A stretch of DNA of 64,000 bases from an uncultured Gammaproteobacteria bacterium (GCA_964493305.1 CAZBLW010000001.1:113484-177483), one strand, 5' to 3'; positions 36,423 to 54,389 are shown, numbered from the stretch's first letter. Notes: generated by a model from the sequence alone, not told the origin. Program-made: numbers and translations.

Positions 36423-36513
36423 GGAGAGGTCGCATAGTGGTCTAGTGCGGTTGCTTGGAGAGCAACTAACGGTTCATAGCCGTTCGAGGGTTCGAATCCC
36501 TCCCTCTCCGCCA
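36423..36513 (+). tRNA. tRNA-Ser (anticodon GGA)
   Basis: GGAGAGGTCGCATAGTGG..., anticodon loop TTGGAGA, long variable arm, T-arm GAGGGTTCGAATCCCTC, CCA. Confidence 0.85.
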
Positions 36514-36614
36514 GTTCGTGCTAGCACGAACTACTTACGAAAAAGCACCCCATGAAAGGGTGTTTTTCTGTAAGGCTGGATTTTTTTCTTGTTATATTTT
36601 AAGATAACATAGTA

Positions 36615-36836
36615 ATGCAATCACATAATATGAAAGATGAGGCAGTAAAACTTGGAAAGAATCTTAAACGTATCCGTATCGAAAAAGGGATATCACAGGT
36701 TGATATAGCCCGATCTCTTAAAGTTAGTAGAGGTTTTATAAGTAATATAGAAAATGGTAAGACGAATCCTACGTTAGCAACCATTGCTAGAATAGCCAAA
36801 GCAGTGGGTGTATCAACCAATGAGCTTTTAAAATAA
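36615..36836 (+). CDS. XRE-family helix-turn-helix transcriptional regulator
   Basis: 73 aa; GISQVDIARSLKVSRGFISNIENGKTNP HTH_3 pattern. Confidence 0.75.
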   Translation: MQSHNMKDEAVKLGKNLKRIRIEKGISQVDIARSLKVSRGFISNIENGKTNPTLATIARIAKAVGVSTNELLK

Positions 36837-36839
36837 TCT

Positions 36840-38426: not shown

Positions 38427-38432
38427 GAATGT

Positions 38433-39890
38433 ATGTATATATCAAAAATTAAATTTCATAATTTTAAAGGATTCAAGGGGGATCACGAGCTTAATTTTGA
38501 TAAAGGTATAAATTTTTTTGTTGGTGACAATAATTGTGGTAAATCAACGGTTTTTGAAGCAATCGATTTTATTTGTGCAAAGAAGGAAAGAAATGAAGTT
38601 ATTACTAAAACGGAAATTGAAGGTGATGATTTTGTTTCAGTTGAGATTGAATTTAGGGGTGAGGATATTAAACCTCTTATTGCCACAGAGGCATTAAAGA
38701 AATATGAATCATCTATTATAGAAGCCGCTGACCAGACTATTTTACGGGTGATGCGATCCAGTGAAGAAACAGAAATTACGCAGGGTGGTAAAAAAAAGAA
38801 TCTTGACATTAAGAATGTTCGTGTTTTTAACCCAACTTCTAGCCAGTTTGAAAACCCTACAGGAATTGATAATACAATTACAGCATTATTTGATGCACAA
38901 TTTGTTTGGGCTGATACTAATCCTGGCGATATTTCAGATTTTTCAAAAACTAAAATATGCGGAAAAATTATAAATGTGATCACTCAGGATTTTGTTAACT
39001 CTCAAACTTGGAAAAAATTTAGGGATTCCCATAAAGAAACTTTTGGCGATGGAGCAAATAGTCTAGCCACCACACTTAAACCGATTGAAGAGAAATTAAA
39101 GACTATTTTAACAGAACAGTACGGGGATACTGAGGTTAGATTTAGTTTTTCTCTCCCAGAAATAGAGAGTTTTTTTAAAACCGGAAATATTGATTTGTCG
39201 GAAGATGGTATTGAGACGAAGAGCTCGGAAAAAGGTACGGGTATGCAAAGGGCATTGGCCCTAGCACTTATTCAAGTATATGCTGACATTTCATCATCTA
39301 ATGGGGAAGATATTTCAAAGCCAATTCTATTCTTTATTGATGAACCGGAGACTTTTTTACATCCAAGAGCACAAAATAAGCTTCTTGATGCACTAGAGAA
39401 AATATCGGATAAATCACAAATTTTTATTATCACTCATTCCCCATATTTGTTAAAAAAATATAAAAAAGAAACCCATTCAATGAATGTTTTTTCAAAAGAG
39501 GCAGGATTAAACAAGGCTGAAGAAGGTAAGGAGTTTGATTTATTTGGAACGTCGAGTCCTACATGGGGAGAAATTAACTATTATGCCTTTGGAGTTCTGT
39601 CTGTCGAATTTCATAACGAACTGTATGGTTTTATTCAAGCAAAGGCGATTCTGGAAGATGAAAAAAATTATTTTGAAGAAGAATTCGAAAAGTACTTAGT
39701 TAATAAAGGCATTGTGCAGGATCAGCCATATATCCGTCTGAAAAAAGATGGCACTACAGAAAACCAGACAAGAACTTTACCAACGAAAATTAGAAATATT
39801 ATTCACCATCCAGACAACACATACAATACAAAATATACTGACGAAGAATTAAAAAGCTCTATCGAGTCTCTAATACCGCTATTGAAATGA
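38433..39890 (+). CDS. ABC/AAA15-type ATPase with C-terminal HEPN-like R-N-x3-H motif; PrrC/RloC-like candidate, a restriction-linked ORF nested in the type I R-M operon
   Basis: Walker [10 protein letters not shown] (aa 31-39), Walker B/D-loop [13 protein letters not shown]-loop ITHSP. C-terminal ~150 aa end with [11 protein letters not shown] (R-N-I-I-H-H). Confidence 0.5.
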
Positions 39891-41086
39891 CTAAACATCA
39901 AAGTAAAATTGAAAAATTAATCAATCAGTTATGCCCACAAGGTGTGGAATTTAAAGAGTTGGGGCAAATTTTGGATTATGAACAGCCAACTAAATATATA
40001 GTTAATTCCACTCGGTATAATGATGATTATGAAATCCCTGTTTTAACTGCTGGTCAAAGTTTTATTTTAGGTTACACAGATGAAATTGAGGGAGTATATG
40101 AATCTGGTAAAAAAAATCCAGTAATTATTTTTGATGATTTTACAACATCATTTCATTGGGTTGATTTTAATTTTAAAGTAAAGTCATCAGCAATGAAAAT
40201 GTTGAGGCCACATGAAGATGTTAAAGTAGACTTTAAATTTGTATATTATGCCATGAAGTGCATTAATTATGTTCCGCAAGATCATGCACGTCATTGGATA
40301 TCAAAGTATTCAAAATTTAAGATTCCTTTTCCACCTATCACAATTCAACAGGAAATAGTTCGTGTGCTAGACTCTTTTACAGAGCTGGAAGCAGAGCTGG
40401 AAGCAGAGCTGGAAGCAGAGCTGGAAGCAAGAAAGAGGCAATATGAGTATTATCGAAATGAATTATTTATATTTGATCAGAGCGTGAAATTTAAACATAT
40501 CAAAGAACTTTCTTTAGAAACTTTTTGGATAATGCCAGCAACTCCAAATTTTACATCCGATGGTAATGTGCCATATATCACATCAAAAAATATAAGAAGT
40601 GGTAACATAGATTTTACGAACGTAAAGAAGATATCAAGACAATCTTTTTTAAATATATCTAAAAATCGACCAATAGTTCGAGATGATATTTTGATAAGTA
40701 TGATTGGTACTATAGGTGAAGTTGCACGTGTTAAAGATAGTGATTTGGAGTTTTATGGTCAAAATATGTATCTTGTAAGATTGAATCAGGAGAAGATAGA
40801 CGTAGGTTATTTTTTACACTTTTTTGACTCAGATAAAATGAAAAACTACTTTGGCTCTATAAAGAATAGGTCCAGTCAAGGTTATCTAAAGGCTGGTCAA
40901 GTAGAATCTATTAAAATTCCAGTACCAGTATTAAGTGAACAAAAAAGAATAGCGGCCATATTAGATAAATTCGATGACCTTGTTAATGATATTTCAATTG
41001 GATTGCCAGCTGAAATTAAAGCTAGAAAATTACAGTATGAGTATTACAGAAGTAAACTTTTAACTTTTGCAGAATATGCCAGTTAA
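39887..41086 (+). CDS. hsdS: Type I restriction-modification system specificity subunit
   Basis: 399 aa; two TRDs separated by a central conserved region (…[29 protein letters not shown]) and a C-terminal conserved region ([16 protein letters not shown]). Confidence 0.85.
40382..40429 (+). repeat. Perfect 4x tandem 12-bp repeat (gagctggaagca) encoding (ELEA)4 in the central conserved region of hsdS
   Basis: Directly visible tandem repeat; in-frame (12 nt). Confidence 0.9.
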
Positions 41087-44000
41087 TAAATACAATTTAG
41101 TTGCCGAAAATTCCCAAAGCACAGTAGTAGCGGAATATACACCAGACAAAAAGCGCTCTAAAAATTACCAAAGCGAGGCAGAATTAGAGAGTGCTTTTAT
41201 CGAGTTACTTAAAACGCAGGCCTATGATTATTTGACTATTACGTCTGAGGATGATCTGATATCAAATTTACGCAAGCAGTTGGAAAAACTTAATGGTTTT
41301 GAATTTAGTGATTCGGAATGGAGTCAGTTTTTTGAAAGTGAGATTGCTAATCCAAATCAGGGTATTGAAGAAAAGACAGAAACTATTCAAGAAGATTATA
41401 TTAAAAATTTAACCCGTGATGACGGCACGGTTAAAAATGTATATCTTTTGAAAAAAGATAATATACACGACAATAATTTACAGGTCATTAACCAATATGC
41501 AACTGAGAAGGGTCAACGAGCTAATCGCTATGATGTAACAGTTCTTGTTAATGGTTTACCACTAGTACACATTGAGCTTAAGCGTCGTGGTGTAGCTATA
41601 CAGGAGGCTTTCAATCAAATTAATCGTTACCAACGAGAGAGTTTTTGGGCTGCGTCTGGCCTTTTTGAATATGTACAGTTATTTGTCATTTCCAATGGCA
41701 CTCATACAAAATACTATAGCAACACTACTCGTTTAGAACATATCAAAGAATCAGTTGAAGGATCAGTCAAAAAGGGCAAAAAGACAAGTAATAGTTTTGA
41801 ATTTACAAGCTGGTGGGCGGATGCTACTAACCGTCCAATTATGGATTTAATGGACTTTGGTAAAACTTTTTTTGCCAAGCATGCTATTTTGAATATTTTG
41901 ACTCGCTATTGTGTATTTACAACAGATCGCTTGTTGCTTGTTATGCGACCCTACCAAATTGTTGCAACAGAAAGAATATTAAATAGGGTAGAAGTTAGCA
42001 CAAACTACAAAAAACTTGGCACTGTTGAGGCCGGTGGGTATGTGTGGCATACTACTGGATCTGGCAAAACGTTAACCAGTTTTAAAACAGCTCAGTTAAT
42101 TAGTAAATTGTCAGATGTTGAAAAAGTATTATTTATTGTCGATCGTAAGGATTTAGATTATCAGACAATGCGGGAATATGACAAGTTTGAAAAAGGGGCG
42201 GCCAATAGTAACACCAGTACGGCAATTTTAAAAAAACAAATTGAAAATCCTAATACTCGTATAATTATTACTACTATCCAAAAGTTGGATCGTTTTATCG
42301 CCCGTAACGGAGGCCATAATATTTTCAACGGGCATGTTGTTTTAATTTTTGATGAATGTCATCGTTCTCAATTTGGTGAGATGCACGCAGCCATTACAAA
42401 GTCATTTAAAAATTATCACATCTTTGGTTTTACGGGTACGCCGATTTTTGCAGTTAACGCTTCATCAAGCGGGCGACCAGATTTAAGGACTACCGAGCAA
42501 GCCTTTGGTGATAAACTACATACCTATACTATTGTTGATGCTATTGCTGATAAAAACGTTTTGCCGTTTAAGGTTGATTATGTTTCTACGGTGCGAGAAG
42601 CGGAAGACATCGAAGACAAAAAGGTTAGTGATATTGATCGTGAGGCGGTACTGTCTTCGCCTGAACGTTTGTCTAAAATTGTTGGTTACATTCGTGAACA
42701 TTTTGATCAAAAAACTAAACGTAACAGTTTTTATAAACTAAAAGATAGACGTCTAGCTGGCTTTAATTCCATTTTTGCTGTTTCTTCAATTGACGTTGCT
42801 AAAAAGTATTATGCGGAATTCAAAAAGCAATTGGCTGATTTGCCAAGTGATAAACAGCTTAAAGTTGCTTTGATTTACAGCTTTGGTGTAAATGACGAAG
42901 ACGCTGACGGCATGATTGATGAAAATTTAGAAGATACCAGCGGACTGGATAAAAGTTCACGTGACTTTTTAGATAGTGCTATTTCAGATTATAATTTAAT
43001 GTTTGGCACTTCTTATGACACTTCTTCTGATAAGTTTCAAAATTACTATAAAGATGTAAGTCAGCGGGTAAAAGATAGGGAAATTGATATTCTTATCGTG
43101 GTCAATATGTTTTTGACTGGTTTTGATGCAACAACGCTTAATACTCTTTGGGTAGATAAAAACTTGCGATTGCATGGACTATTGCAGGCTTATTCTCGTA
43201 CCAATAGAATTCTAAATAGCATAAAAACATTTGGTAATATTATTTGCTTCCGTAATTTAGAAAAAGCAACTAATGAATCAATCGCTCTTTTTGGCGACAA
43301 GGAAGCAAGCGGTATTGTTCTTTTGAAATCATACGAGGAATATTATCATGGTTATAAAGACGGTAAAAAAGAAGTACGTGGTTATGAGAGTTTGGTTAAT
43401 GAGCTGTTAGAAAAGTTTCCTGTCAGCGAACGAATCATGGGCGAACAAGATCAGAAAGATTTTATTAGGCTATATAGTGCTATTTTAAGAGTGCGTAATA
43501 TTCTAGTAACCTTTGATGAGTTTGCTGGCAACGAGATTTTAACTGAGCGTGATGTTCAGGATTACCATAGCATGTATATTGATTTGTATAATGAGTTTAA
43601 AAAAGCGGTTGAAAATGAAAAAGAAAATATCAACGAGGATTTAGTATTTGAAATGGAGCTTATTAAACAGATTGAGATCAATATTGACTATGTTTTGGGA
43701 TTGATCAAAAAATATCATGAAGATCATACTAAGAATCGAGAAATTCTATTAGATATAAATAAGGCGATTGATTCTAGTGTTGGGTTACGTAATAAGAAAG
43801 ATCTCATCAATAAATTTATTACCTCCCTTGACGTTCATTCGGTTGTTGATGATGATTGGAAGAAATTTGTTGAAAAGAAGAAGCTTGAAGAGCTTGATGA
43901 AATCATTGCTAAGGAAAATCTTGATCGAGACGCAACTTATAAATTTATAAAAAATGCATTTCGTGATGGAGGTATTGCAACCGCTGGTACGGCCATAACT

Positions 44001-44126
44001 AAAGTTTTACCACCTGTATCTCGTTTTTCTCCGACTGGTGAGCGTAGTAAAAAGCGTGATAGTGTTTTAGGTAAACTAACAATTTTTTTTGAAAGATTCT
44101 TTGATATTTCAGAAGGTAATTTTTAA
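41067..44126 (+). CDS. hsdR: Type I restriction enzyme endonuclease/helicase subunit
   Basis: 1019 aa; Walker [13 protein letters not shown]-box FDECHRS, SF2 helicase motifs; overlaps the hsdS stop. Confidence 0.9.
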
Positions 44127-44134
44127 TATAGTTG

Positions 44135-45463
44135 CTATAGAGATAGTATTTTATTTTTAAAGCTAATTATTTTATTTCTCAATAAAATTTCACCATTTAG
44201 ACAAGCAAGTAAATCTCGCTTCTCCTGATCCTCACCCTCTCTTAAAATAAATTTTGCATAGTTATTAATATCGACGTCATTCACGTCGATATTATCATTT
44301 TTACCCGTAACCATATTTTGAAACTTTTTAAATCTCCGTATATCTGATTTAATCTTGTTTTGCATCGGGGATTTATTGAAATCGAATTCATCCGTGAGCT
44401 TTTGTAGTTGTTTGATCAAATCAGTTTCATTAATATATCCGCTTTTGCAGTACTTGTCTTTGGCTTTGGTGCATCCGTAATATACATGCCGGTTATACTC
44501 ACCGTTTTTCAATTTCTTGAATTTCTCAGTGGCAGAGATGCCTGATCCGCATAAACCGCATTTCATTATCTTGGTAAAAGCAAACTCAATATTTTCTCTC
44601 CTCACCAGTTGCGAGTTTTTCATCTGTTCCTGAACTTGATCAAACAATTCCTTAGTAATAATAGGTTGGTGTTTCCCCTGATACCAATTGCCTGACCCTC
44701 TGGGGTACTCAAACGGCCCGTAATAGAACGTATTCTCCAATAAGCGGTAGATATTACCCAGGCTCAAATGTTTCTTGCCTAGGGCTGTTCTAAAGTTCAA
44801 TTCAAACCGCAGCCAGTGATAGAGTTTTCTGCCTGACCATTTTTCATAGGCGACTTTTTCAAACATCTGCTTAATAACTGGCCCCCTCTCAGGATCAATC
44901 AAGCATTCTCCCTTATGGTCGACTCTTTTCTCTTTTAGATACCCTGTGGGAGGGCAGGTCGGCCATAAGCCCATCTCACATCTCGTTCTCAAACCTCTTT
45001 TGACATTAATGCCTCGGTTATCATTCTCCAGCTTGGCCTGAGAACAAAGTATCATGAGCAAAAACTTTTCATTGGGTGAATTACTGAATGTTTGTCCGAA
45101 TGTTCTGATGCCTAAAAGTTTTTTCGCATCCATAAGATCCACGAGCGATCCTAAATCACCAGCATTTCTTGATAACCTGTCCGGTGCCCAGGTGAGAATG
45201 GCATTGAATTTATCTTCGCGAATATCACGCAGGATCTCCCTAAACACCGGGCGCTTGTCTGAATCCTTGGCTGATTTTGCTTCACGCCGTATATCTATGA
45301 TTTCAAGATTCTCTCGCTCCGCTATCTGGAGCATTTCTTTTACCTGCGAATCAATGGACAGCGCCTGCCGCTCGTCTGATTCAGTGCTTTTCCGGGCATA
45401 TAAACAATACCTCAGCTTATCTGCCACCTGTATGGGATCCTTTTGTTTGGTAGTAATCTCCAT
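44135..45463 (-). CDS. Serine recombinase (resolvase catalytic domain + recombinase domain + zinc ribbon; small member of the large-serine-recombinase type)
   Basis: N-terminal YARKSTESDERQALSIDSQ catalytic Ser/Arg motif; C-terminal Cys cluster CGLCGSG...YYGCTKAKDKYC. Confidence 0.8.
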   Translation of the reverse strand: MEITTKQKDPIQVADKLRYCLYARKSTESDERQALSIDSQVKEMLQIAERENLEIIDIRREAKSAKDSDKRPVFREILRDIREDKFNAILTWAPDRLSRNAGDLGSLVDLMDAKKLLGIRTFGQTFSNSPNEKFLLMILCSQAKLENDNRGINVKRGLRTRCEMGLWPTCPPTGYLKEKRVDHKGECLIDPERGPVIKQMFEKVAYEKWSGRKLYHWLRFELNFRTALGKKHLSLGNIYRLLENTFYYGPFEYPRGSGNWYQGKHQPIITKELFDQVQEQMKNSQLVRRENIEFAFTKIMKCGLCGSGISATEKFKKLKNGEYNRHVYYGCTKAKDKYCKSGYINETDLIKQLQKLTDEFDFNKSPMQNKIKSDIRRFKKFQNMVTGKNDNIDVNDVDINNYAKFILREGEDQEKRDLLACLNGEILLRNKIISFKNKILSL

Positions 45464-45563
45464 GCCCCCATTAATGACAGAACCACCAGATTTGCTAAGC
45501 CCATTGCTGTCGATAACTTGTTGGCAACTTTTCTCTAGTTTTTATTAAGGAATACTAACGTTT

Positions 45564-47027
45564 TTAAATAAAATATATCCTTGGTACACGAGGGGGCTTT
45601 TCAGAAACACTATGTACTAAGTTGGAAAATGCGTCGACTAAATCGTCGTGTTTTTCTACGCCAAAATGAACGATCTGCTGTATCAGTTGTTCGGCTCCTT
45701 TTCTTGGAAACAGTACTTGTCCTGATTTGATGAGGTTAGCGGTCAGCACTAGGCGACTTCTCTTATCTTGATAACCGGGCCGGGTGGTCATGACGTGCCA
45801 CAACCCCTCGCTTTTTAATTGTTGCGGTAGGGCTTTTTGATACGCAACATCTTCGATGATAAACGTCGGAGGCAGACCATCTCTTTCATAACTTTTTTCC
45901 AGTAGCTTACAAGTATCAACGGTTTCGGGGAATGTCATGCGCCTATTGATGATTTTTGGAAGAATATATACACGATAACTCGTTTCAGTTTCATATAATA
46001 ATCCCAGTACCATAGCGGTATAGTCGGCAAGATTACTTTTTGAAATAGCGGGGTCAATGCCAATCCTTACTTCCATATGTGAGGAATAACCACTCTTAAA
46101 TTTTATTGGCGCCGGTATTTCATCATAGAAATGAATCCATTCCGGATAGATAGCTTGATCTTCGTCTGGAATAATATTCAGCAAGAATTCGCGTTGCCAA
46201 GCGATATCATCGCCAACTTTTCTTTTTTCAGCTTCAATGTCCTCACTGGTTGGATATTTGCCGGGCCATAAACATTTCCCTTTATTATCGATCAGGGGGA
46301 AATAAAGAAAGTTACCGTCAATGTTGTTATGTTCAGATTCGTCTTTCAAGCGCATGAGGAGCGAATCCTCGTGCAAGAGATTGCCCACCACGATTAACCG
46401 TGTGTTTTTATCCCCGGCTGGAATAACCTCGCCCTTGAGCCATTGATACGTCTTATTTCTGCCTTCCCGTGTCTTGGTTGAGGTCATATCTTCCACGTCA
46501 TCGCAAATAATCAAATCCGGACGATGTTCATGATGCCGAAGCCCCCGGATGCTTTGCTCAGTGGATGCTACGGTAATGCGCGCATCGGTATTGGAAAATA
46601 CCAGGGAATGCGAGCCCCATTCGTCGTTATCTTCTTGAAACGGGCCAAGGTCTTTTTTTAACAAATCATTATCCTCAAGCTCCCGGCGTAAATTCATCAT
46701 GTGTTGCTTGGCCTGGGTTTGGGTCTGGCAAAAAATGACCACAAACTTTTTTTGTTGTTTGCCTAAGATTGCCCAGATCGGATAAGCCGTGGTGATAACA
46801 GTAGATTTTCCTGATCCGCGGAAGGCGACCACAAACAGATTTTTATGGTCATTTATTTCGAGGAGATGGATAATCTCTTTTTGAAAATCTGCCGTGGCAT
46901 ATTTGACGTAGTGGGCGTAGTAGAAGTGAAAGAAGTAAGAAAAACTTTCCTTAGTGATGGCTATTCGTACTTTCTTGTCTTTCGTCATCTGCTCCACCAG
47001 GTCCTGTGGAATTATTTCGGTTGTCAT
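45564..47027 (-). CDS. terL: Phage terminase large subunit
   Basis: 487 aa; Walker A AFRGSGKST in the N-terminal ATPase; C-terminal RNase-H-like nuclease region with acidic residues (IGIDPA...). Confidence 0.8.
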   Translation of the reverse strand: MTTEIIPQDLVEQMTKDKKVRIAITKESFSYFFHFYYAHYVKYATADFQKEIIHLLEINDHKNLFVVAFRGSGKSTVITTAYPIWAILGKQQKKFVVIFCQTQTQAKQHMMNLRRELEDNDLLKKDLGPFQEDNDEWGSHSLVFSNTDARITVASTEQSIRGLRHHEHRPDLIICDDVEDMTSTKTREGRNKTYQWLKGEVIPAGDKNTRLIVVGNLLHEDSLLMRLKDESEHNNIDGNFLYFPLIDNKGKCLWPGKYPTSEDIEAEKRKVGDDIAWQREFLLNIIPDEDQAIYPEWIHFYDEIPAPIKFKSGYSSHMEVRIGIDPAISKSNLADYTAMVLGLLYETETSYRVYILPKIINRRMTFPETVDTCKLLEKSYERDGLPPTFIIEDVAYQKALPQQLKSEGLWHVMTTRPGYQDKRSRLVLTANLIKSGQVLFPRKGAEQLIQQIVHFGVEKHDDLVDAFSNLVHSVSEKPPRVPRIYFI

Positions 47028-47421
47028 CTGGTTTAATGTTTAATGGTAAAATTTGAGCCAATTGCAAGGCCTTGTGTACAATTTCGGTTTGCGAGGGGGT
47101 TAATTCTCCGGTATCGTCGAATTTGGAAGTGACCTCGACCTTGTCTTTGAATTTTGGATTCCGGTGGCGGAGCCAAAAGCTGATGGCTGACCAGTTTTTC
47201 TCTTTGATGAGCGTGAGGAGTTGGCTCTCGCTCATGTCATTCACTAGCGCCTCACCCTCAGCTAAGGCCTCGTCCATATCCTGACTGAATGTTTTATCTT
47301 CTCGTTTCCAGCGATATACGCTGTTGCGGGAAATACCTGTTTTTTCGCAAGCAACCTGCACAATGGGTATTTTTCGCAGTTCATCGAGAAAACCGTTTTT
47401 TACCTTATTTTTCTTGGCCAT
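46951..47421 (-). CDS. HTH protein, terminase small subunit-like
   Basis: 156 aa; N-terminal HTH (VACEKTGISRNSVYRWKRED); located immediately upstream of terL, with its 3' end overlapping the terL 5' end by ~77 nt in another frame. Confidence 0.5.
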   Translation of the reverse strand: MAKKNKVKNGFLDELRKIPIVQVACEKTGISRNSVYRWKREDKTFSQDMDEALAEGEALVNDMSESQLLTLIKEKNWSAISFWLRHRNPKFKDKVEVTSKFDDTGELTPSQTEIVHKALQLAQILPLNIKPDDNRNNSTGPGGADDERQESTNSHH

Positions 47422-48685
47422 ATACTTTTGCTTTAATACCTGTTAACCGCTCGTACCTCTTTATCGCTAAATCGCAAAAAATCGGTTCAAGCTCCATGGC
47501 ATAGACCTTTCGTTTTAATTGTTCCCCGGCGATAAGCGTACTGGCTGACCCGGAAAATGAATCAAGAATAATATCACCAGGCTTACTGCAGCGCCGGATC
47601 GCTTTTTCGTGGAGTTTCGGCGGCTTGCTGGTGGCGTGTTCGTATTTTTTGCCAGCCAAACGCTTCACCAGCCACACGTCCAGTTCATCCAGGCTTTCTT
47701 CCAACAGGTTATTCCCTGTGGTTATTTCCTTATTTAAGATTTCATTGAGATTTTTGATGGAGGGCGCAATGTATGGTTTTCCTTTCACGCCGTACACGGC
47801 TGGCTCATAGCATTTGTTAAACGCGGTCTGGGGTGTTGGGTTTTGTGAGTTTTTAATCCACAGACAGACACGTTTGTTCGCAATGCCAAGCTCTCGATAC
47901 AGTTCTTGCATCAGGCCTATATATGTCTGGTCGCACCAGTAGAAGATGTGGCAATCCGGCCTTGCCACCGATACGGCGGCAATAAGGGTGTCTTTAATGA
48001 ATTGTTTATATTCCTCATATGATCGGTTATCATTCACCACTCCACCGTAGTCCTTTTTTCCTCCAATGCCCTTGGTGTAATTAAGATTCAAATTATATGG
48101 AGGATCACTATATATAACCGATGCCCGGTCGTTGCCAAAGAGCCGCTTGAGGTTTTTGGGATCGGTTGAACTACCGCAGAGCAGTCGATGTGGTCCTAGC
48201 ACGATTAAGTCACCCAATTTAGTTTTGGGAGTTTTAATTTTTTTGATCTCCTGTTCAATGTCGAAATCTTCGTCTTTCACCTCCAGCTCGTTATCCCACA
48301 GGTGTGAAAGGTCAATCTGATCAAATCCCACATCAAGCAATAGATCCAAGTCAAAAGATTTCAGTTTTTCAAAATCCCAGTCACCGCCCAGGGCGTTGCT
48401 GGCTATGAGGTATTGTTTAGCCTCTTTTTCTGTGAGTTTGCGACTAGGGATACGGACATCAATAACTTCTTCCCCTCTGCCCAGAAATTGTAAGGCCTTG
48501 ATCCGCTGATGCCCGGCTAATATTTTCCCGTTAATATCAATAGCGGGAATTTCAACCAGATTGTATCTGGTGAGACTTTTTTTTAGATCCGACATTTGTT
48601 TGTCGGTGATGGTGCGAGGGTTCACGTCTTGGGGGATAAGATCGTTTACTCGCTTTTGCACGGTGTGCCACGTCAGTTTTTTCAT
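47405..48685 (-). CDS. ParB-like nuclease domain / DNA N6-adenine or N4-cytosine methyltransferase fusion
   Basis: N-terminal ParB/Srx motif (AGHQRIKA); MTase motif IV SDPPY followed by motif I LDSFSGSAST (beta-class order). Confidence 0.8.
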   Translation of the reverse strand: MKKLTWHTVQKRVNDLIPQDVNPRTITDKQMSDLKKSLTRYNLVEIPAIDINGKILAGHQRIKALQFLGRGEEVIDVRIPSRKLTEKEAKQYLIASNALGGDWDFEKLKSFDLDLLLDVGFDQIDLSHLWDNELEVKDEDFDIEQEIKKIKTPKTKLGDLIVLGPHRLLCGSSTDPKNLKRLFGNDRASVIYSDPPYNLNLNYTKGIGGKKDYGGVVNDNRSYEEYKQFIKDTLIAAVSVARPDCHIFYWCDQTYIGLMQELYRELGIANKRVCLWIKNSQNPTPQTAFNKCYEPAVYGVKGKPYIAPSIKNLNEILNKEITTGNNLLEESLDELDVWLVKRLAGKKYEHATSKPPKLHEKAIRRCSKPGDIILDSFSGSASTLIAGEQLKRKVYAMELEPIFCDLAIKRYERLTGIKAKVYGQEK

Positions 48686-48780
48686 ACGATGTTATTAATT
48701 ATTAAAAACTAACTGAGTCGATTATAAAGAAAAAACCGAGGCGTTGTGCTTCGGTTAAAAATATTGTTTAAATGTATAAG

Positions 48781-49725
48781 CTATATTTCTCCTAGTCTTT
48801 TTTTAGTTCTCGTAATGATAGTTCGAATACCATTGGTGGTTAATTTCGGCCATTTCTTTCTCATTTTAGCGAGTATATTAATATCGGTGGCTGTAAAACC
48901 AGAAAGACCTAACTCTCTATTCGGAGTAAGCTTCTTTTTTAATTCTTTATAGAGGTTATATACCATAATATCCCTGTCAAAAGTTTTCCATTCTTTGCTC
49001 TTGCCGATGTAGTCCTTTAACCGTTTTTGTTCCTCCGCTATCTGACCCCAGTTTTCCATGATGTCTTCTTTTTTGGTATGGCCGAGGATTTGCACAAATA
49101 GTTCCATTTGTTCAGTTTTTTCTTTTCGTTTCCAAGCAACATAAAAGTGAGGGGTGCGGTATTCCCTTCTGCCAAAAAAAATATATAGTTCCAAAAAATC
49201 CCTAAACCCTCGATCATTGTAATCAATGCCGAAGTGATTGAGTATCTCGTTGTAGGTTTGCCCATATACGGGTGGCAAGAATTTTTCTCTGAATTCATCC
49301 AACGCATCATATTCTTCGCTGGATATACGTTTTTTTCCGCCGGTAATGCGGAGTTTATTTTGTATGTATTCATCACTTCGCTCCATTTCCGCAAAGCGGT
49401 TCCAGAAATGTTCGTTCCAGGTTTTATATTGTTTATATTTTTTAAACGGTTTTCTGGGCAAGGGGCAACCCACTTCGGCAAAACGTTTCTTGAGCCAATC
49501 GATTTTTTCCAAAAACCATTGGTCCCGGATCATAGCTTGGGCCTTATAGTAGTTCTGGTCGTATATTTTACGGCTTTGCTTATTTTTCTTTATTTTTGTG
49601 GATTTCATGTGGATATTTAGCAGGTTGACAGATGTGGACAGTTCTGTATAATTATATATACCATGAATAAAACGAAAAAGATAGACTTGGCGGGTTACGC
49701 CTATATCCGTAATCAGGTTATCCAT
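48781..49725 (-). CDS. Hypothetical protein (true start probably the internal Met near 49605)
   Basis: 314 aa ORF; the first ~40 codons overlap the divergent repressor gene and its promoter, so a later start is likely; no recognisable motifs. Confidence 0.4.
   Translation of the reverse strand: MDNLITDIGVTRQVYLFRFIHGIYNYTELSTSVNLLNIHMKSTKIKKNKQSRKIYDQNYYKAQAMIRDQWFLEKIDWLKKRFAEVGCPLPRKPFKKYKQYKTWNEHFWNRFAEMERSDEYIQNKLRITGGKKRISSEEYDALDEFREKFLPPVYGQTYNEILNHFGIDYNDRGFRDFLELYIFFGRREYRTPHFYVAWKRKEKTEQMELFVQILGHTKKEDIMENWGQIAEEQKRLKDYIGKSKEWKTFDRDIMVYNLYKELKKKLTPNRELGLSGFTATDINILAKMRKKWPKLTTNGIRTIITRTKKRLGEI
49625..49652 (+). promoter_or_regulatory. Near-consensus sigma-70 promoter giving an essentially leaderless transcript for the LexA-like repressor
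   Basis: TTGACA (49625-49630) - 16 nt - TATAAT (49647-49652); ATG at 49663. Two ATGTGGA(Y)A direct repeats (49607 and 49632) overlap the promoter. Confidence 0.55.
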
Positions 49726-50280
49726 ACCGGGGTAACGCCGTCTTTGCGGGAAATAGGACGGGTTGTGGGTTATAATTCCCCTCGCTCCGTGCAGTTAATG
49801 CTTGAGAGGTTGCAGAGGCAGGGCCTGCTTTCATATGAGGATGGAATAATTAAGCTGTCTCCTCGTAAAAGAAAAAGCCAGGCTGAGCGAACCGTATCTG
49901 TACCCCTGGTGGGATCGGTGGCGTGTGGCATGCCGTCGCTGGCAGAACAGGAACCCGAGGCTATGATAGAGGTGTCAACCAAGTTGGCTACGCCGGGACA
50001 CATATATTTTCTACTCCGTGCACGAGGTACGTCCATGAACAAATCGGGTATTAAGGATGGCAATTTAGTTTTAGTGAGACAACAGCCTACTGCCGAAAGA
50101 GGAGACAAGGTTGTTGCACTAATAAATGATGAGGCAACAATAAAATTATTTTATCCTGAAAAAGATATGGTTGTCCTGAAACCTGATTCGACCGACAAGG
50201 AGCACAAACCAATTATTCTATCTGATGAATTTTTTATACAAGGGGTTGCGGTTGCATCCTTCCCCTCTGATATATACTAA
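49663..50280 (+). CDS. LexA-like / phage CI-like S24 peptidase repressor
   Basis: 205 aa; N-terminal LexA-type winged HTH (TPSLREIGRVVGYNSPRSVQLMLERLQRQGLL); cleavage-site-like VACG; Ser (RARGTSM) and Lys (EATIKL) catalytic dyad. Confidence 0.75.
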   Translation: MNKTKKIDLAGYAYIRNQVIHTGVTPSLREIGRVVGYNSPRSVQLMLERLQRQGLLSYEDGIIKLSPRKRKSQAERTVSVPLVGSVACGMPSLAEQEPEAMIEVSTKLATPGHIYFLLRARGTSMNKSGIKDGNLVLVRQQPTAERGDKVVALINDEATIKLFYPEKDMVVLKPDSTDKEHKPIILSDEFFIQGVAVASFPSDIY

Positions 50281-50298
50281 TCATTAAAATCAATCTTT

Positions 50299-50445
50299 AT
50301 GAGTAAAGGATCAAAAACCTTCCCCCTTGGCAGGGATTCCAAGACTGGCGAATTTATTCCGGTCAAGGAAGCCAGGCAGCACCCCAATACCACTACTGTG
50401 GAACGTGTGCCGAAGCGTGGCTACGGCGATACTAAGAAAAAATAA
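50299..50445 (+). CDS. Unlisted 48-aa small ORF (hypothetical)
   Basis: ATG..TAA ORF below the 60-aa track threshold, filling the gap between the repressor and GIY-YIG genes; no strong SD, so tentative. Confidence 0.25.
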   Translation: MSKGSKTFPLGRDSKTGEFIPVKEARQHPNTTTVERVPKRGYGDTKKK

Positions 50446-50457
50446 CCATCTTAAAGT

Positions 50458-50811
50458 ATGCAATTAAAATGGACAGAGCGGATTCCGCTCACAAAAACCG
50501 GTGTTGATAAGATAAATTCAATTGCCGGCGTGTACCGTTTGATTTATAAAGAATCAGATGATAAGTATTACGTGTATTATGTCGGGCAAACGGACGATTT
50601 AAATGACAGGCTTTCCCAACATCTCTCGGACAACGAGGAAAACGAATGTTGCCAAAAACATCTCGATAAGTATACCTGCTATTTTCGAGCGGCTGCTATT
50701 TCAACGCAAGCCAATCGGGATGGTGCCGAAGTAGCACTCTATAATCAATATAAACCTACATGTGTTGAAAGAGTTCCTGATGTTGATCCAATTGAAATTA
50801 ATTTTGATTAA
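50458..50811 (+). CDS. GIY-YIG domain protein
   Basis: 117 aa; GVYRLIYK...YYVYYVGQTDDLNDRLSQH matches the GIY-X10-YVG...R...H pattern. Confidence 0.65.
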   Translation: MQLKWTERIPLTKTGVDKINSIAGVYRLIYKESDDKYYVYYVGQTDDLNDRLSQHLSDNEENECCQKHLDKYTCYFRAAAISTQANRDGAEVALYNQYKPTCVERVPDVDPIEINFD

Positions 50812-50813
50812 TT

Positions 50814-51125
50814 ATGTCAGAAACCGCATCGCATAAAAACACAAAAACCCGCGGATTGAAAGGCTCAAAAACTGAGATCAAAATCCCCGGGAACCGTCGA
50901 CTTGATGCAGGTACATCAAATCGTGCTCGAGAAGTTGAAAGAAGTGGCAATAAAAAATCGATTGCGAAAGCCGTAAGGCGCCTTAACAGTCAAACTAATA
51001 AGAAAAAGGAATTATTGGTGCCGACGCAAAATCTTGATATGGCAAAATCGGTTGCAAAAAAAGTTGCTAAAGGAAAAATATTGATCCAGAATCTATCTAG
51101 GACTCAGAGACGGTTTGTTGAATAA
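50814..51125 (+). CDS. Hypothetical highly basic protein
   Basis: 103 aa, Lys/Arg-rich, no motifs recognised. Confidence 0.35.
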   Translation: MSETASHKNTKTRGLKGSKTEIKIPGNRRLDAGTSNRAREVERSGNKKSIAKAVRRLNSQTNKKKELLVPTQNLDMAKSVAKKVAKGKILIQNLSRTQRRFVE

Positions 51126-51143
51126 TTTGGTTTGTAAATATTT

Positions 51144-51527
51144 ATGTCTACAACAACTCAGTTTATAACTGCTGATTTTTTGGATGGCGTCATCAAATCC
51201 ACTCTAGCGATTCTTTGGAATATATTTAAAAGTATCTGGCCTTCCATAAAATATTTCCTAATAGGTTTTACAATATATATTGCTGGTGGTGTGCTGTTGC
51301 AAATAATTATGTTGAAAGGTAGTGGCAATCGTCACAAGTTGTCAGCACATTTTAATAAAATAGTTGGCGCTCTCACATATGCCGTCTTTTTTATTTTATA
51401 TCTGTTTATCGCTTATAAAATATGGGGGCCTCAGGTAATTGATGATTTATGGTTTACTCTAATTGGAACGCTCTCTTTTATTTCAACGTGGCTATTTTTA
51501 AGACTCATAGGTTTTTGGTACTATTAG
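51144..51527 (+). CDS. Hypothetical membrane protein (3 TM helices)
   Basis: 127 aa, hydrophobic segments. Confidence 0.4.
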   Translation: MSTTTQFITADFLDGVIKSTLAILWNIFKSIWPSIKYFLIGFTIYIAGGVLLQIIMLKGSGNRHKLSAHFNKIVGALTYAVFFILYLFIAYKIWGPQVIDDLWFTLIGTLSFISTWLFLRLIGFWYY

Positions 51528-51543
51528 TTTATAGGTTATTTAT

Positions 51544-52218
51544 ATGGAGCTATCAGATGAATTAATTCAAAAATTCAAAGATTTAACCGAAAAAAAGCAG
51601 GGTGAAAAAATTTCTTGGGAAGAAGCAAAAGAAGGTGTGAGTAGTTTTTTGCGTCTGATGGAGCTTTTCTATAAACAGGCGACAATTGACCATAAACGTC
51701 AGTTGAAACTAAAGGAACATCCAAAGGGTTTTCATATTGAAGGTCAAGGATATACCTGCGCTATTTGTTATGGCTCCATATCCGATGAGGAAACGTGGTA
51801 TGACAAATGGGGTATCAAATGCCTCTTATGCCAAAAGGCTATAGATAAAAAGATAATCCCGGGCTCAGTAGCTAAAAATGATAACACTTGGTATTCGGAA
51901 CATGATCTCCATACTAGGTTCAATATCGACAAGCGTGCAATGAAAGAATTTGTTAAAGCAGGTGTTTTAAAACCACGTATCGTACCTAACGCTTCCGGTC
52001 GCCCACATGTGTATATTTTTATGATAAAGGATAATAAAGACACGCTCCCACCAAAACACTTAACCGAGTCGGAACATGTGAGTTATAAAGGTGAAGAAAA
52101 AGGCAGAATTCATATTGAGCCGTGGTACAGATTTGTTGATCCGTACAAACATTTAGAGGTGTATAAAATCATGAATTATTTAAATGTTGTAAATAAAAAT
52201 GAAACTCATATCAAATAG
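51544..52218 (+). CDS. Hypothetical protein with CxxC...CxxC zinc-finger motif
   Basis: 224 aa; CAICYG...CLLCQ. Confidence 0.4.
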   Translation: MELSDELIQKFKDLTEKKQGEKISWEEAKEGVSSFLRLMELFYKQATIDHKRQLKLKEHPKGFHIEGQGYTCAICYGSISDEETWYDKWGIKCLLCQKAIDKKIIPGSVAKNDNTWYSEHDLHTRFNIDKRAMKEFVKAGVLKPRIVPNASGRPHVYIFMIKDNKDTLPPKHLTESEHVSYKGEEKGRIHIEPWYRFVDPYKHLEVYKIMNYLNVVNKNETHIK

Positions 52219-53701
52219 AAGATGGAATTTAGATAGTGAAAAAGCCAGTCAAATAAAAAATTGGCTAATTGAGCATGGGGGCACGGCAGACGAAAAAGTT
52301 GGCGAGTATGAAAATTGGCGAGTTAGATATTCTGATGCTGTTTTTACTTACTATACAAAAGGGACTCTTTATGTCACTGACTCTAATGATGGTGCCCTTA
52401 ACGAAGCACACGAATTGGTAGATTCACTTGTCGGATCAAAATTTGTTGAACCTTCAAAAGAAGTTTTAATAGGTTTTGATGAAACAGGTAAAGGTGAGGT
52501 ACTCGGCCATGTGGTATTGGTTGGCGTATTAATTCCTGCTAATCTATATCATGAAATTGAGAAGGTAATAGGTGTCGCGGATACAAAAGTGAGCCATACT
52601 GTGGAGTATTGGGATGATATATTTAACAAAATAGATTTTTTTAGGTCAAAAGGCCTTCAATTTATTATTGAAAAAATTCCCCCATGGCATTTTGATCGTT
52701 ACAATATCAATAAGCTACTAGATATTACTTATCAACGAATTTTGCTGTCATATAGTACAAAATCTAACTTGTCAAAGACTAGGGTTGTTTTTGATGATTA
52801 CGGAATAGGATATAGTCTTAAGAGATATTTAAATGCTATATCTCAGGGAGGAGCAGAGATTATTAAAACAACAAAAGCGGATGATAAATATCTCGAATCA
52901 AGAGTAGCTTCGCTTATTGCAAAACGAGAGCAACAAAAAATAATGGCCGCTATATCCAGTAATCCAGAATTTAAAATAGAAACTCAAAGTATTGGTAGTG
53001 GTAATGCTGGTGACAAAAATACTGTTGGTTGGCTAAAATCCTGGTATGAGACTAATCATGATTGGCCGTGGTTTGTGAAACAATCATTTAAAACAATTGG
53101 AGATATAGAAGGACGTGTAAATAAAATACAAAAGGCCATACCTCCTATCAATGAACACTTATTATCAAAAGAATTCAGGGAAAAATTTGAAAGTGGTGAA
53201 TTAAACATACAATCTTTATCGGTTGTTTGCCCTTGCGGCGCAACTGCAAAAGCAATTAAATTAATTTATAAGGATAAAATTGTTACGGCTATCTGTGCAA
53301 GTTGTAAGAATAAATTACAAGACGCCGCACTGACTTTACGATATTATTGTGGACGCATTATTCCTGATACAAGTGTGATTTCAAGCGGTTTATTATCAAT
53401 GGATTTAGATTCCTCAAAATTTTTTGAAAACTTTACTTTTTTAATACATCCAACAGTTCGGCGTGAAAGTGATACCAAGGGGGGTAAAAGAGAATTTGAG
53501 CGTCTTGCTAATTTTGCGGCCATTGGGAGGATTAAATTGGAAGAGACGGGGTCAATTCTGGATCCAAAAAAATTGGATAACATATCACGTGACGAGTCAA
53601 TACTTATTGGTGCTATTGATTCTAAAGCTATTTTATTGACTAGGGATAATCAAATGAAAGGTATAGCTCAAGCAAAAAACCTTTTTGTAATAGAAGGCTA
53701 A
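52199..53701 (+). CDS. Multidomain protein with an RNase HII-like nuclease core and a C-terminal zinc ribbon
   Basis: Residues ~85-210: IGFDETGKGEVLGHVVLVGV (cf. RNase HII G-x-D-E-x-G-R-G-P-x-x-G-x-V-V), ADTKVS (cf. DSKKLS), VVFDDYG (cf. LIDGN). Later CPCG...CASC. Confidence 0.45.
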   Translation: MKLISNRRWNLDSEKASQIKNWLIEHGGTADEKVGEYENWRVRYSDAVFTYYTKGTLYVTDSNDGALNEAHELVDSLVGSKFVEPSKEVLIGFDETGKGEVLGHVVLVGVLIPANLYHEIEKVIGVADTKVSHTVEYWDDIFNKIDFFRSKGLQFIIEKIPPWHFDRYNINKLLDITYQRILLSYSTKSNLSKTRVVFDDYGIGYSLKRYLNAISQGGAEIIKTTKADDKYLESRVASLIAKREQQKIMAAISSNPEFKIETQSIGSGNAGDKNTVGWLKSWYETNHDWPWFVKQSFKTIGDIEGRVNKIQKAIPPINEHLLSKEFREKFESGELNIQSLSVVCPCGATAKAIKLIYKDKIVTAICASCKNKLQDAALTLRYYCGRIIPDTSVISSGLLSMDLDSSKFFENFTFLIHPTVRRESDTKGGKREFERLANFAAIGRIKLEETGSILDPKKLDNISRDESILIGAIDSKAILLTRDNQMKGIAQAKNLFVIEG

Positions 53702-53868
53702 TTATAAATGTGACAAACGACTGTAACTTTATAATTGATTATAGTGTCACTTTTGTCACCTTTTAAATATTAGGCGCACGAGGATCTTGCTGTATGATAT
53801 AATAAAAGTACTTTGGAAAGCCTTACAGGGGTTGCCTGATTGAGGTTCCAGCCCGAGGTAGCCCGCCA

Positions 53869-53904
53869 TTACTAAAGTTGTGACGTAAGTCACAAGTTTA
53901 GTAA
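53869..53904. other. Near-perfect 16-bp stem hairpin (ttactaaagttgtgac-gtaa-gtcacaagtttagtaa)
   Basis: Inverted repeat read directly from the sequence, just inside the right end of the island. Confidence 0.7.
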
Positions 53905-53927
53905 TAGTGAATGCGGAAGTTGGGATT

Positions 53928-54017
53928 CGAACGGGTGCGAGCGAGATATGAGCGTCAGCGAATAATCGAGCGACAGACAATCCGAGTTGGCACAGGATTG
54001 GCTGGCACCCAGGACAA
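53928..54017 (-). repeat. Conserved ~90-nt core element, copy B (reverse complement of 261-350)
   Basis: 84/90 nt identical to copy A. Bracketed by GGGATTCGAAC (antisense of the tRNA-Ser T-arm) at 53922-53932 and by the sense 19-nt tRNA-Ser 3' fragment at 54038-54056. Confidence 0.8.
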
Positions 54018-54037
54018 GGAGCTAAAAGTTCCGCGTA

Positions 54038-54056
54038 AATCCCTCCCTCTCCGCCA
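54038..54056 (+). repeat. 19-nt direct repeat of the tRNA-Ser 3' end (attR-like) with ~45 nt of tRNA-flank-like sequence after it
   Basis: aatccctccctctccgcca is identical to the last 19 nt of both tRNA-Ser genes. The following ttaaacttcgctaacg...ttaattttttatacatatatttaa is ~80% identical to the 54328-54375 flank. Confidence 0.8.
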
Positions 54057-54140: not shown

Positions 54141-54229
<89 letters not shown>

Positions 54230-54315
54230 CCAACTTCGCGCCTGTCGGCGCTTCGCTGGATAGGCGAGAAATTAGATAGTTGATATTGAGTTAAGCGGAG
54301 CAAAGCGGAGTTTAA

Positions 54316-54327
54316 CCCTCTCCGCCA
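54316..54327 (+). repeat. Third partial copy (12 nt) of the tRNA-Ser 3' end plus a flank copy
   Basis: ccctctccgcca followed by tccaacttagctaacgctttacttaattttttatacatacatttaaac. Confidence 0.7.
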
Positions 54328-54389
54328 TCCAACTTAGCTAACGCTTTACTTAATTTTTTATACATACATTTAAACAAATAATTTTTTTA

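Follow-up and report, generated by a model that had tools for sequence, protein, structure and literature searches.

A tRNA-associated island of Patescibacteria with terminase genes and no recognizable capsid genes: a candidate phage satellite

Gene content and extent of the island

The 64,000-nucleotide stretch of DNA analyzed here (the window; GCA_964493305.1 CAZBLW010000001.1:113484-177483), which carries the name of an uncultured Gammaproteobacteria bacterium, contains a genomic island of ∼17.4 kb at the 3′ end of tRNA-Ser(gga). The island extends from about position 36514 to 53878, with an outer repeat at 54056. Genes for a large serine recombinase (LSR), a terminase large subunit (TerL), a TerS-like protein, a ParB-methyltransferase fusion (ParB-MTase), and a hypothetical protein (H275) form a minus-strand block that is divergent from the gene of an S24-type repressor (Table 1). 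For all open reading frames (ORFs) between 44 and 54 kb, neither Pfam nor PHROGs gave a match to head, portal, tail, or lysis families, and fold searches of the island ORFs likewise identified no structural or lysis proteins. An initial annotation of the window had singled out this block as a candidate for a phage satellite resembling PICIs (phage-inducible chromosomal islands) and had pointed to the hypothetical ORFs as possible hiding places of capsid or portal genes; profile searches of these ORFs found no such homologues. Its gene calls for the block and the divergent repressor held, as did its description of the downstream genes (GIY-YIG, basic, membrane, Zn-finger, and RNase HII-like proteins, with no structural or lysis genes among them). 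The 5.6-kb boundaries it had proposed were wrong, as the element reaches beyond them on both sides and includes the neighboring type I restriction-modification (R-M) genes as cargo.

The host could be assigned to Patescibacteria (the candidate phyla radiation [CPR]), as all named relatives of its RpoB are from CPR lineages, in agreement with the host suspected initially. Other genes in the window encode housekeeping functions (RpoB/C, UvrA, GroEL, Fpg, SOD, and DnaG). The G+C fraction is 0.40 to 0.45 over 44 to 51 kb, compared with 0.33 to 0.36 in the flanks.

The closest relative was found at locus L070 (related loci are designated by L numbers). Identity between the two islands is mosaic, at 98.6% for TerL (as protein), 93% for the LSR, and 83% for the ParB-MTase. 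Three DNA segments are common to both (44149-48386, 51516-52184, and 36484-36835); the last is 91% identical and spans the 3′ end of tRNA-Ser(gga) through the short XRE-type ORF at the island end. Since L070 carries different genes between the same conserved ends, the type I R-M genes of the window were regarded as cargo. Ratios of nonsynonymous to synonymous substitution rates (dN/dS) in comparison with L070 were 0.078 for TerL, 0.073 for the LSR, 0.17 for the ParB-MTase, and 0.13 for ZN224, a protein of the left arm; by this measure, these genes are under purifying selection.

All three Pfam domains of the LSR (Resolvase, Recombinase, and zinc ribbon) exceeded the cut-off, and its catalytic serine motif, YARKSTE, is kept in 55 homologues. 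The Walker A, Walker B, C-motif, and nuclease acidic motifs of TerL are kept in 83 sequences (FRGSxKST, DLIIxDDxED, GNLLHEDS, GxDxAIS, ExVAYQ, and HDDLxDAF), and with its motifs conserved the packaging enzyme is predicted to be a functional terminase. The true start of TerL probably lies 10 to 13 codons downstream of the start of the maximal ORF; the protein was called at 477 or 474 amino acids in L156 and L163. H275, the product of the first gene of the packaging operon, has 48 homologues, all of them in CPR, and the slot that it occupies varies across the island family. An AlphaFold2 (AF2) model of H275 (pLDDT, 88) was mostly α-helical and gave no fold match when compared with the PDB. Given this confident helical model without a match, H275 was rejected as a hidden capsid protein.

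A Cys-Gly cleavage site, the serine of a GTSM motif, and a conserved lysine could be read from the repressor sequence. These residues were compared with those of LexA, and the Cys-Gly site is as in UmuD. The protein is thus predicted to be an autocleavable repressor of the SOS type. Between the hexamers of the promoter that drives its gene sits an ACAG-TT-CTGT palindrome, a candidate operator. An S24 homologue holds the same divergent position in 31 loci. The possibility that the S24 protein is the host LexA was rejected, because the gene lies within the attachment (att) boundaries and the high-G+C core and has the same divergent position in 31 islands found in unrelated contexts.

Table 1. 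Features of the island and its termini (window coordinates)
Feature	Position	Strand	Evidence or remarks
tRNA-Ser(gga), integration target (attL side)	36423-36513	+	ARAGORN, Rfam
tRNA-proximal terminus, predicted P′ arm	36514-36540	+	Palindrome GTTCGTGCTAGCACGAAC, conserved motif TCGTGCTAGCACGAG
XRE-type helix-turn-helix (HTH) ORF, 68 aa, island end	36632-36838	+	Sequence reading
hsdM, type I R-M cargo	36840-38426	+	Pfam, PADLOC
OLD/AriA-like ATPase, embedded in R-M system	38433-39890	+	Pfam, PADLOC
hsdS, type I R-M cargo	39887-41086	+	Pfam, PADLOC
hsdR, type I R-M cargo	41067-44126	+	Pfam, PADLOC
LSR	44135-45463	-	Resolvase 1.5e-20, Recombinase 9e-13, Zn_ribbon_recom 1e-6; phrog_95 integrase 6e-63
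TerL, terminase large subunit	45564-47027 (maximal ORF)	-	phrog_38 2.5e-83; ATPase domain resembles T7 gp19
TerS-like HTH protein	46951-47421	-	phrog_4044 3e-12, plus phrog_309 and phrog_4102
ParB-like N-terminal domain fused to N6/N4 MTase	47405-48685	-	phrog_620 1.8e-23; N6_N4 MTase (PF01555) 1.8e-28
H275, hypothetical protein, 275 aa	48781-49608	-	ORF 48781-49725; true start is an internal Met
Consensus σ70 promoter of repressor gene	49625-49652	+	TTGACA-16-TATAAT, 12/12 match
LexA/CI-like S24 repressor	49663-50280	+	LexA_DNA_bind and Peptidase_S24; divergent from packaging block
GIY-YIG protein	50458-50811	+	Left arm (50458-53701)
Basic protein (103 aa) and membrane protein (127 aa)	Within left arm, 50458-53701	+	No family matches
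ZN224	51544-52218	+	Left arm; no Pfam or PHROG match
RNase HII-domain protein, 500 aa	52199-53701	+	End of left arm
Conserved noncoding terminal block, ∼170 nt	53708-53878	+	nhmmer, alignment A1
Hairpin and GC-rich stretch of ∼160 nt, ending in 19-bp repeat	53879-54056	+	Folding z = -4.1

The island family and its attachment sites

A TerL scan with one genome per species identified 235 relatives. The best 80 of the 235 were analyzed, each over ±10 kb around TerL; their TerL proteins are 60 to 99% identical, and nearly all of them are from metagenome-assembled genomes (MAGs) of Patescibacteria belonging to many lineages. Complete CPR genomes that carry the island include OY970181.1, OY970175.1, JBLYPX010000001.1, and LCGL01000001.1. 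IMG/VR contributed about a dozen further loci, among which several islands had been classed as viral contigs. Taken over all sources, the core recurs in >90 loci with TerL identities of 48 to 99%. By ORF clustering, it comprises TerL (93 loci), the ParB-MTase (84), TerS (69), the LSR (62), the S24 repressor (31), and an ORF of ∼135 amino acids (26); any other protein family was found in 11 loci at most, with a superfamily 1 (SF1) helicase in only 5. The order is constant: the terminal block, the minus-strand regulator arm, divergent from it a small ORF followed by the ParB-MTase, TerS, and TerL genes, 0 to 10 kb of cargo, the LSR, 0 to 7 kb of cargo, and a tRNA gene. Judging from the loci collected, the island family is both CPR-wide and CPR-specific. 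Its gene combination is novel. Several island-bearing MAGs (L070, L074, L081, L082, L090, L098, and others) are labeled as Gammaproteobacteria, Flavobacteriaceae, Nanoarchaeia, or Dysgonamonadaceae, with islands and neighboring genes that are CPR-like; these labels probably reflect automated mislabeling or mis-binning.

The island in L070 (93% identical) lies at tRNA-Ser(gct) rather than tRNA-Ser(gga) and carries different cargo. With H275 as the query, the same island was also located on contigs from Logan and JGI (L156 and L163); samples that contain it include SRR9016293, SRR6032601, and JGI 3300009868. L163 belongs to the same island lineage (91 to 95% nucleotide identity) and adjoins the same tRNA-Ser(tga) gene (97%). 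In L163, the 3′ end of that gene is taken up by a second island, which has R-M cargo and an LSR of its own (61% identical). The corresponding region of the window (54141-54380) consists of tRNA-Ser(tga) followed by a 76-nt insert between 23-nt direct repeats (54217-54239 and 54316-54338). Because a whole second island is found there in L163, this arrangement was interpreted as an integration or excision scar, and close relatives thus differ by island gain or loss. The 65 nt after the second 23-nt repeat resembles the sequence that follows the repeat at 54038. Two copies of the LSR and/or TerL that stem from diverged islands, arranged in tandem or next to each other, were seen in L163 (3026-4351), L142, L097, L112, L010/L011, and L130. 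The tRNA genes of CPR are multi-occupancy hotspots.

In 15 related loci, a tRNA gene was identified beyond the recombinase gene and its cargo in the same place and orientation (8 Ser with four anticodons, 3 Gln, 2 Glu, 1 Trp, and 1 Asp). The motif (A/T)TCGTGCTAGCACGAG directly follows the tRNA 3′ end in every subfamily (Ser, Trp, and Gln) and is inverted relative to the block at the far end. With nhmmer, this terminal block was found in ∼45 loci; its orientation never differs, and it lies 0.6 to 8 kb upstream of the MTase gene. It contains the GTGACA-N6-TGTAAC palindrome, a near-invariant TGTCACTTTTGTCAC, GTCAC repeats, and two CGAGG motifs, after which the bases differ by subfamily. The block terminates in a sequence resembling a tRNA 3′ end (...GGTTCCAGCCCGAGGTAGCCCGCCA; consensus, ...GGTTCyAGCnCGAGnnnGCCCGC(C)A), and its last bases track the 3′ end of the target tRNA: CCGCCA/CCGCA for Ser, GGCCCGC for Trp, and CCAGC(C)A for Gln.

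When the two termini were joined, the inverted repeat AGCnCGA...TCGnGCT appeared in the same register in eight of nine reconstructed attP sites, centered on the last bases of the tRNA. The attP site of a serine integrase consists of imperfect inverted-repeat half-sites around a short core. The repeat at the joined termini has the form of such a site, and the island encodes no recombinase other than the LSR. The last bases of tRNA-Ser(gga) are accordingly placed as the putative crossover core, and the predicted junctions are ...GGTAGCCCGCCA|GTTCGTGCTAGC... for attP and tRNA-Ser(gga)|TTACTAAAG... or |TTAAACTTCGC... for attB. The block is the probable P arm of attP together with control sites, a reading that was preferred because its terminus covaries with the tRNA end and completes the inverted repeat. 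As a structured RNA it was rejected, since Rfam returned nothing, RNAalifold gave no consensus fold, and mutual information was dominated by subclade structure. The initial annotation had suggested looking for a helper phage with the same packaging site; the invariant core of the block was confined to islands in IMG/VR, and the block was therefore rejected as a pac site that would link the islands to a helper. Apart from the role as an att arm, candidate binders or functions include TerS (pac), the ParB domain, the repressor, and a recombination directionality factor (RDF). A candidate for the latter, as a guess, is ZN224, which has >214 CPR homologues and a model (pLDDT, 90) with weak matches to BldC/Xis-like winged HTH folds, as might befit an excisionase-like protein.

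A perfect 19-bp copy of the tRNA-Ser 3′ end (54038-54056, repeating 36495-36513) lies ∼180 nt beyond the block. Repeats of the tRNA end of 19 to 22 bp also bound the islands in L086 (∼14.7 kb) and L090 (∼18.6 kb), both at tRNA-Ser, and in L091 (∼18.3 kb) at tRNA-Trp. The GC-rich segment that ends in this repeat has counterparts of ∼160 to 190 nt in these Ser- and Trp-targeting loci (L086, 3402-3570; L090, 222-416; L091, 1565-1771), with GAAAGCCGGA, GAGGCGGGGTCG, and GTGACCGA as common motifs; L163, although closely related, does not have it. The segment may be an outer att repeat or extended att arm, a scar of another small element, a hitchhiking miniature element, or a small RNA. As the inverted repeat of the LSR type is located at ∼53878, the functional far end was set there, and 54056 was kept as an alternative end.

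Phage relatives, known satellites, and interpretation

The nearest true phages were three temperate siphovirus-like entries in IMG/VR (L013 to L015), with TerL proteins ∼40% identical to those of the islands. The order of ParB-MTase and TerL genes is the same, and the same ParB-MTase gene precedes TerL in L014 and L015; however, portal, protease, major capsid protein (MCP), adaptor, neck, and tail genes follow in the phages, whereas cargo and the LSR follow in the islands. No homologues of the structural proteins of these phages were identified in the 80 genome loci, and none of the 10 most suspicious same-strand ORFs after TerL was structural. By homology, the module of ParB-MTase, TerS, and TerL is phage-derived, with phages of the L013 to L015 type as its evolutionary source. 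Measured against a functional temperate prophage of the Caudoviricetes, the island has no portal, HK97-fold capsid, tail, or lysis genes beside its terminase, whereas its phage relative L014 does.

With PICIs, the element shares its nature as a site-specific island of ∼10 to 20 kb, a repressor divergent from an operon, a TerS, cargo at hotspots, and the absence of capsid, tail, and lysis genes. It differs in having an LSR where PICIs usually have a tyrosine integrase, a LexA/CI-type S24 repressor in place of an SOS-insensitive Stl-like one that a protein of the helper phage relieves, nothing recognizable as a pri-rep/ori module, and a TerL and TerS of its own where PICIs combine TerS or Rpp with the TerL of the helper; its host phylum, Patescibacteria, is also different. 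Among the features that define PICIs, it thus has its own integrase with att sites and no structural or lysis genes, and is without a replication module, an SOS-insensitive repressor, and use of a helper TerL. Because of its serine integrase, SOS-type repressor, lack of a pri-rep module, and own TerL, it cannot be counted as a PICI. The initial term "PICI-like" therefore stands as an analogy (a mobile element with repressor, recombinase, and terminase and without morphogenesis genes) and fails as a statement of membership. The accompanying premise that a terminase without capsid genes is a hallmark of satellites was also incorrect, since classic PICIs carry only TerS and capsid-forming PICIs (cf-PICIs) carry TerL together with capsid genes.

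To our knowledge, cf-PICIs are the only described satellites with both TerS and TerL, and in this they resemble the island; they additionally encode a portal, protease, MCP, head-tail connectors, and HNH proteins, none of which was found in the island or in the 80 relatives. The phage-inducible chromosomal island-like elements (PLEs) of Vibrio cholerae and the marine VEIMEs (virion-encapsidated integrative mobile elements) with serine recombinases are similar in LSR-mediated integration, size (∼15 to 18 kb), and a role in defense or interference (PMC9618062). The comparison was made at the level of domain families. PLEs target VCR repeats and depend on ICP1, whereas the island targets a tRNA gene; no TerL has been reported for PLEs and some VEIMEs, in contrast to the island. 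CPR prophages described so far contain full structural modules. No prior description of the island family was found in the literature, which bears out the initial remark that such elements are essentially undescribed in CPR.

The explanation placed foremost, and given about an even chance, is that the island is an SOS-inducible phage satellite with a full terminase and no capsid genes that works in a PICI-like manner. Held a shade more cautiously, at just under even confidence, is the wider proposal that the family represents an unrecognized satellite class of Patescibacteria, characterized by TerS, TerL, and ParB-MTase without a capsid, LSR-mediated insertion at tRNA genes, and SOS inducibility, and shuttling defense genes, diversity-generating retroelements (DGRs), and LOOT RNA among ultrasmall, episymbiotic bacteria. 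For induction, excision, packaging, and helper dependence we infer the following course. The autocleavable repressor would hold the packaging operon off until DNA damage (RecA*) or a signal from a helper phage lifts repression. The LSR, with a directionality factor for which ZN224 is the candidate, would then excise the island between the inverted-repeat arms centered on the last bases of the tRNA. TerS and TerL would recognize and cut the island DNA and pump it into procapsids of a coresident or coinfecting tailed phage of the CPR host. Once in a new cell, the island would be inserted at a tRNA gene by the LSR, and its cargo (here the R-M system and the OLD-like ATPase) could protect the host.

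Several results weigh against this satellite interpretation. Neither a helper phage nor a pac site was found; identity to the nearest TerL of a phage is only ∼40%, and no recognizable phage in IMG/VR shares the terminal block. The repressor is of a phage-like rather than a PICI-like type. Neither a primase nor a rep domain was detected in the island proteins with Pfam and PHROGs, and the family as a whole has no conserved replication gene. A search for excised or empty sites with a single degenerate att pattern (attL, attR, attP, and attB) gave no matches in viral contigs and six unrelated tRNA-Ser genes in metagenome contigs, and no examined locus has terminal repeats. As the relatives were inspected over a fixed distance around TerL, morphogenesis genes could be located farther off in those genomes. 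Finally, we know of no satellite that has TerL but no capsid genes, so that the combination is without precedent.

The phage ancestry of the packaging module, with homologues in L013 to L015, would also suit a decayed prophage that had its morphogenesis and lysis modules deleted and no longer has any function of its own, and some copies do look grounded, as in L163, which is without the outer repeat, and in L004 and L012, where TerL is truncated. However, independent decay would not repeatedly halt at the same gene set, and this portal-less architecture recurs in >90 loci spanning TerL identities of 48 to 99%, with intact catalytic motifs, purifying selection (dN/dS, 0.07 to 0.17), conserved ends and att architecture, and near-identical copies at different tRNA genes. 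Decay, which the initial annotation had named as its alternative, was therefore judged very unlikely. Neither hidden capsid or portal genes nor vertical conservation without att repeats was found, and att-type ends are present. A complete minimal virus with unrecognizable structural proteins could draw on the several island proteins that have no non-CPR homologues or known fold. From a motor of the TerL type, a portal and an HK97-type capsid are to be expected, and these are usually detected by profile searches; beyond the packaging genes, LSR, and repressor no protein is conserved family-wide, the variable ones being small or of defense type; as the α-helical H275 also matched no capsid-like fold, a virus of this kind is scarcely credible.

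Two other explanations, each improbable but less so than decay or a minimal virus, place the terminase in a different role. The terminase may have been kept by a defense or interference island chiefly to sabotage invading phages, by cutting or mis-packaging their DNA or titrating procapsids, with generic and occasional spread. The cargo is indeed mostly defensive (type I R-M, OLD-like ATPase, type III-like helicases, and DGRs), and known satellites hinder their helpers through packaging proteins (PMC9618062). However, TerL had no PADLOC match, and the strong conservation of TerS and of the TerL motifs for ATPase and nuclease activity, along with exact att ends, fits self-packaging better; interference also does not exclude satellite transfer, as the known interfering TerS proteins belong to satellites. 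The island could instead be independent of a helper or be one part of a split system, with capsid genes elsewhere as in gene transfer agents (GTAs), capsid-free transfer such as natural transformation among attached cells, or packaging of flanking host DNA in situ as in lateral transduction. The lack of a conserved replication module would suit in situ packaging, the inspection of relatives covered ±10 kb around TerL, and competence and pilus systems, which might serve capsid-free transfer, are common in CPR bacteria. Against this, morphogenesis genes are absent from the 64-kb window and from the 80 loci, patchy presence across species is more in keeping with a mobile parasite than with a system of the host, and TerL motors of the Caudoviricetes act on portal-containing procapsids, which together make helper-independent transfer doubtful.

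CPR bacteria account for a large share of bacterial diversity, but their genomes are tiny, few members have been cultured, and little is known of their mobilome. The island family is a concrete vehicle for horizontal transfer of defense systems and DGRs among them. If the satellite interpretation is correct, a full terminase without a capsid would be an undescribed satellite design and would pose the question of how a foreign TerL docks on the portal of a helper. "Provirus" calls based on TerL in CPR MAGs and in IMG/VR include capsid-less islands, and one study reported a "provirus" rate of 20% in Patescibacteria MAGs; because IMG/VR lists several islands as viral contigs, this rate may include islands. 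Under the satellite interpretation, a share of the CPR "proviruses" would be satellites, and helper phages of CPR could be sought through portal-TerL compatibility. The conserved terminal block and the serine integrases, for which tRNA att sites are defined, could also be used as tools and as markers for CPR helper phages.

Cargo, LOOT RNA, and the end of the left arm

Cargo is concentrated in two hotspots, between TerL and the LSR and between the LSR and the tRNA gene. Across the family it includes type I R-M systems, DGR reverse transcriptase (RT) and bAvd genes, SF1, restriction-type, and type III-like helicases, nucleases, and an IS256-type transposase; a Cu-type P-type ATPase was recognized by reading the sequence alone. 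The R-M system of the window was also found after the recombinase gene in L076, L080, L084, L090, and L145, with HsdR 82 to 83% and HsdM 86 to 87% identical. DGR components (RT and bAvd) were seen between TerL and the LSR in L003 (4423-5481), L114 (13869-14222), and ∼10 other loci, and these islands may carry some of the "cellular" DGR clade that is specific to CPR.

LOOT RNA (RF03000) was detected in 8 of 10 relatives scanned with Rfam, and a covariance model built from the Rfam matches recovered it from 29 of 90 sources. With few exceptions, it lies between TerL and the LSR on the strand opposite TerL, often as what looks like the 5′ leader of a small ORF on the minus strand (for example, L091, 12246-12373; L071, 12473-12591; L109, 13974-14092; and L113, 12041-12162, all on the minus strand). 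The island copy in the window is without LOOT. No earlier account of where LOOT occurs in genomes was found in the literature, and the islands link this orphan RNA to a genetic context.

The C terminus of the RNase HII-domain protein at the end of the left arm is prolonged by a long extension that contains CxxC pairs and had no family match; among the loci, this protein was seen only in the same island lineage (L156 and L163). The hsdS gene contains a perfect 12-nt tandem repeat in 4.2 copies (40380-40429; CAGAGCTGGAAG), which is translated as (ELEA)4 in the middle of the specificity subunit. In type I enzymes, the copy number of a 4-amino-acid repeat (TAEL in EcoR124I/II) changes the spacer of the recognition site, and by analogy the hsdS repeat may act as a specificity switch.

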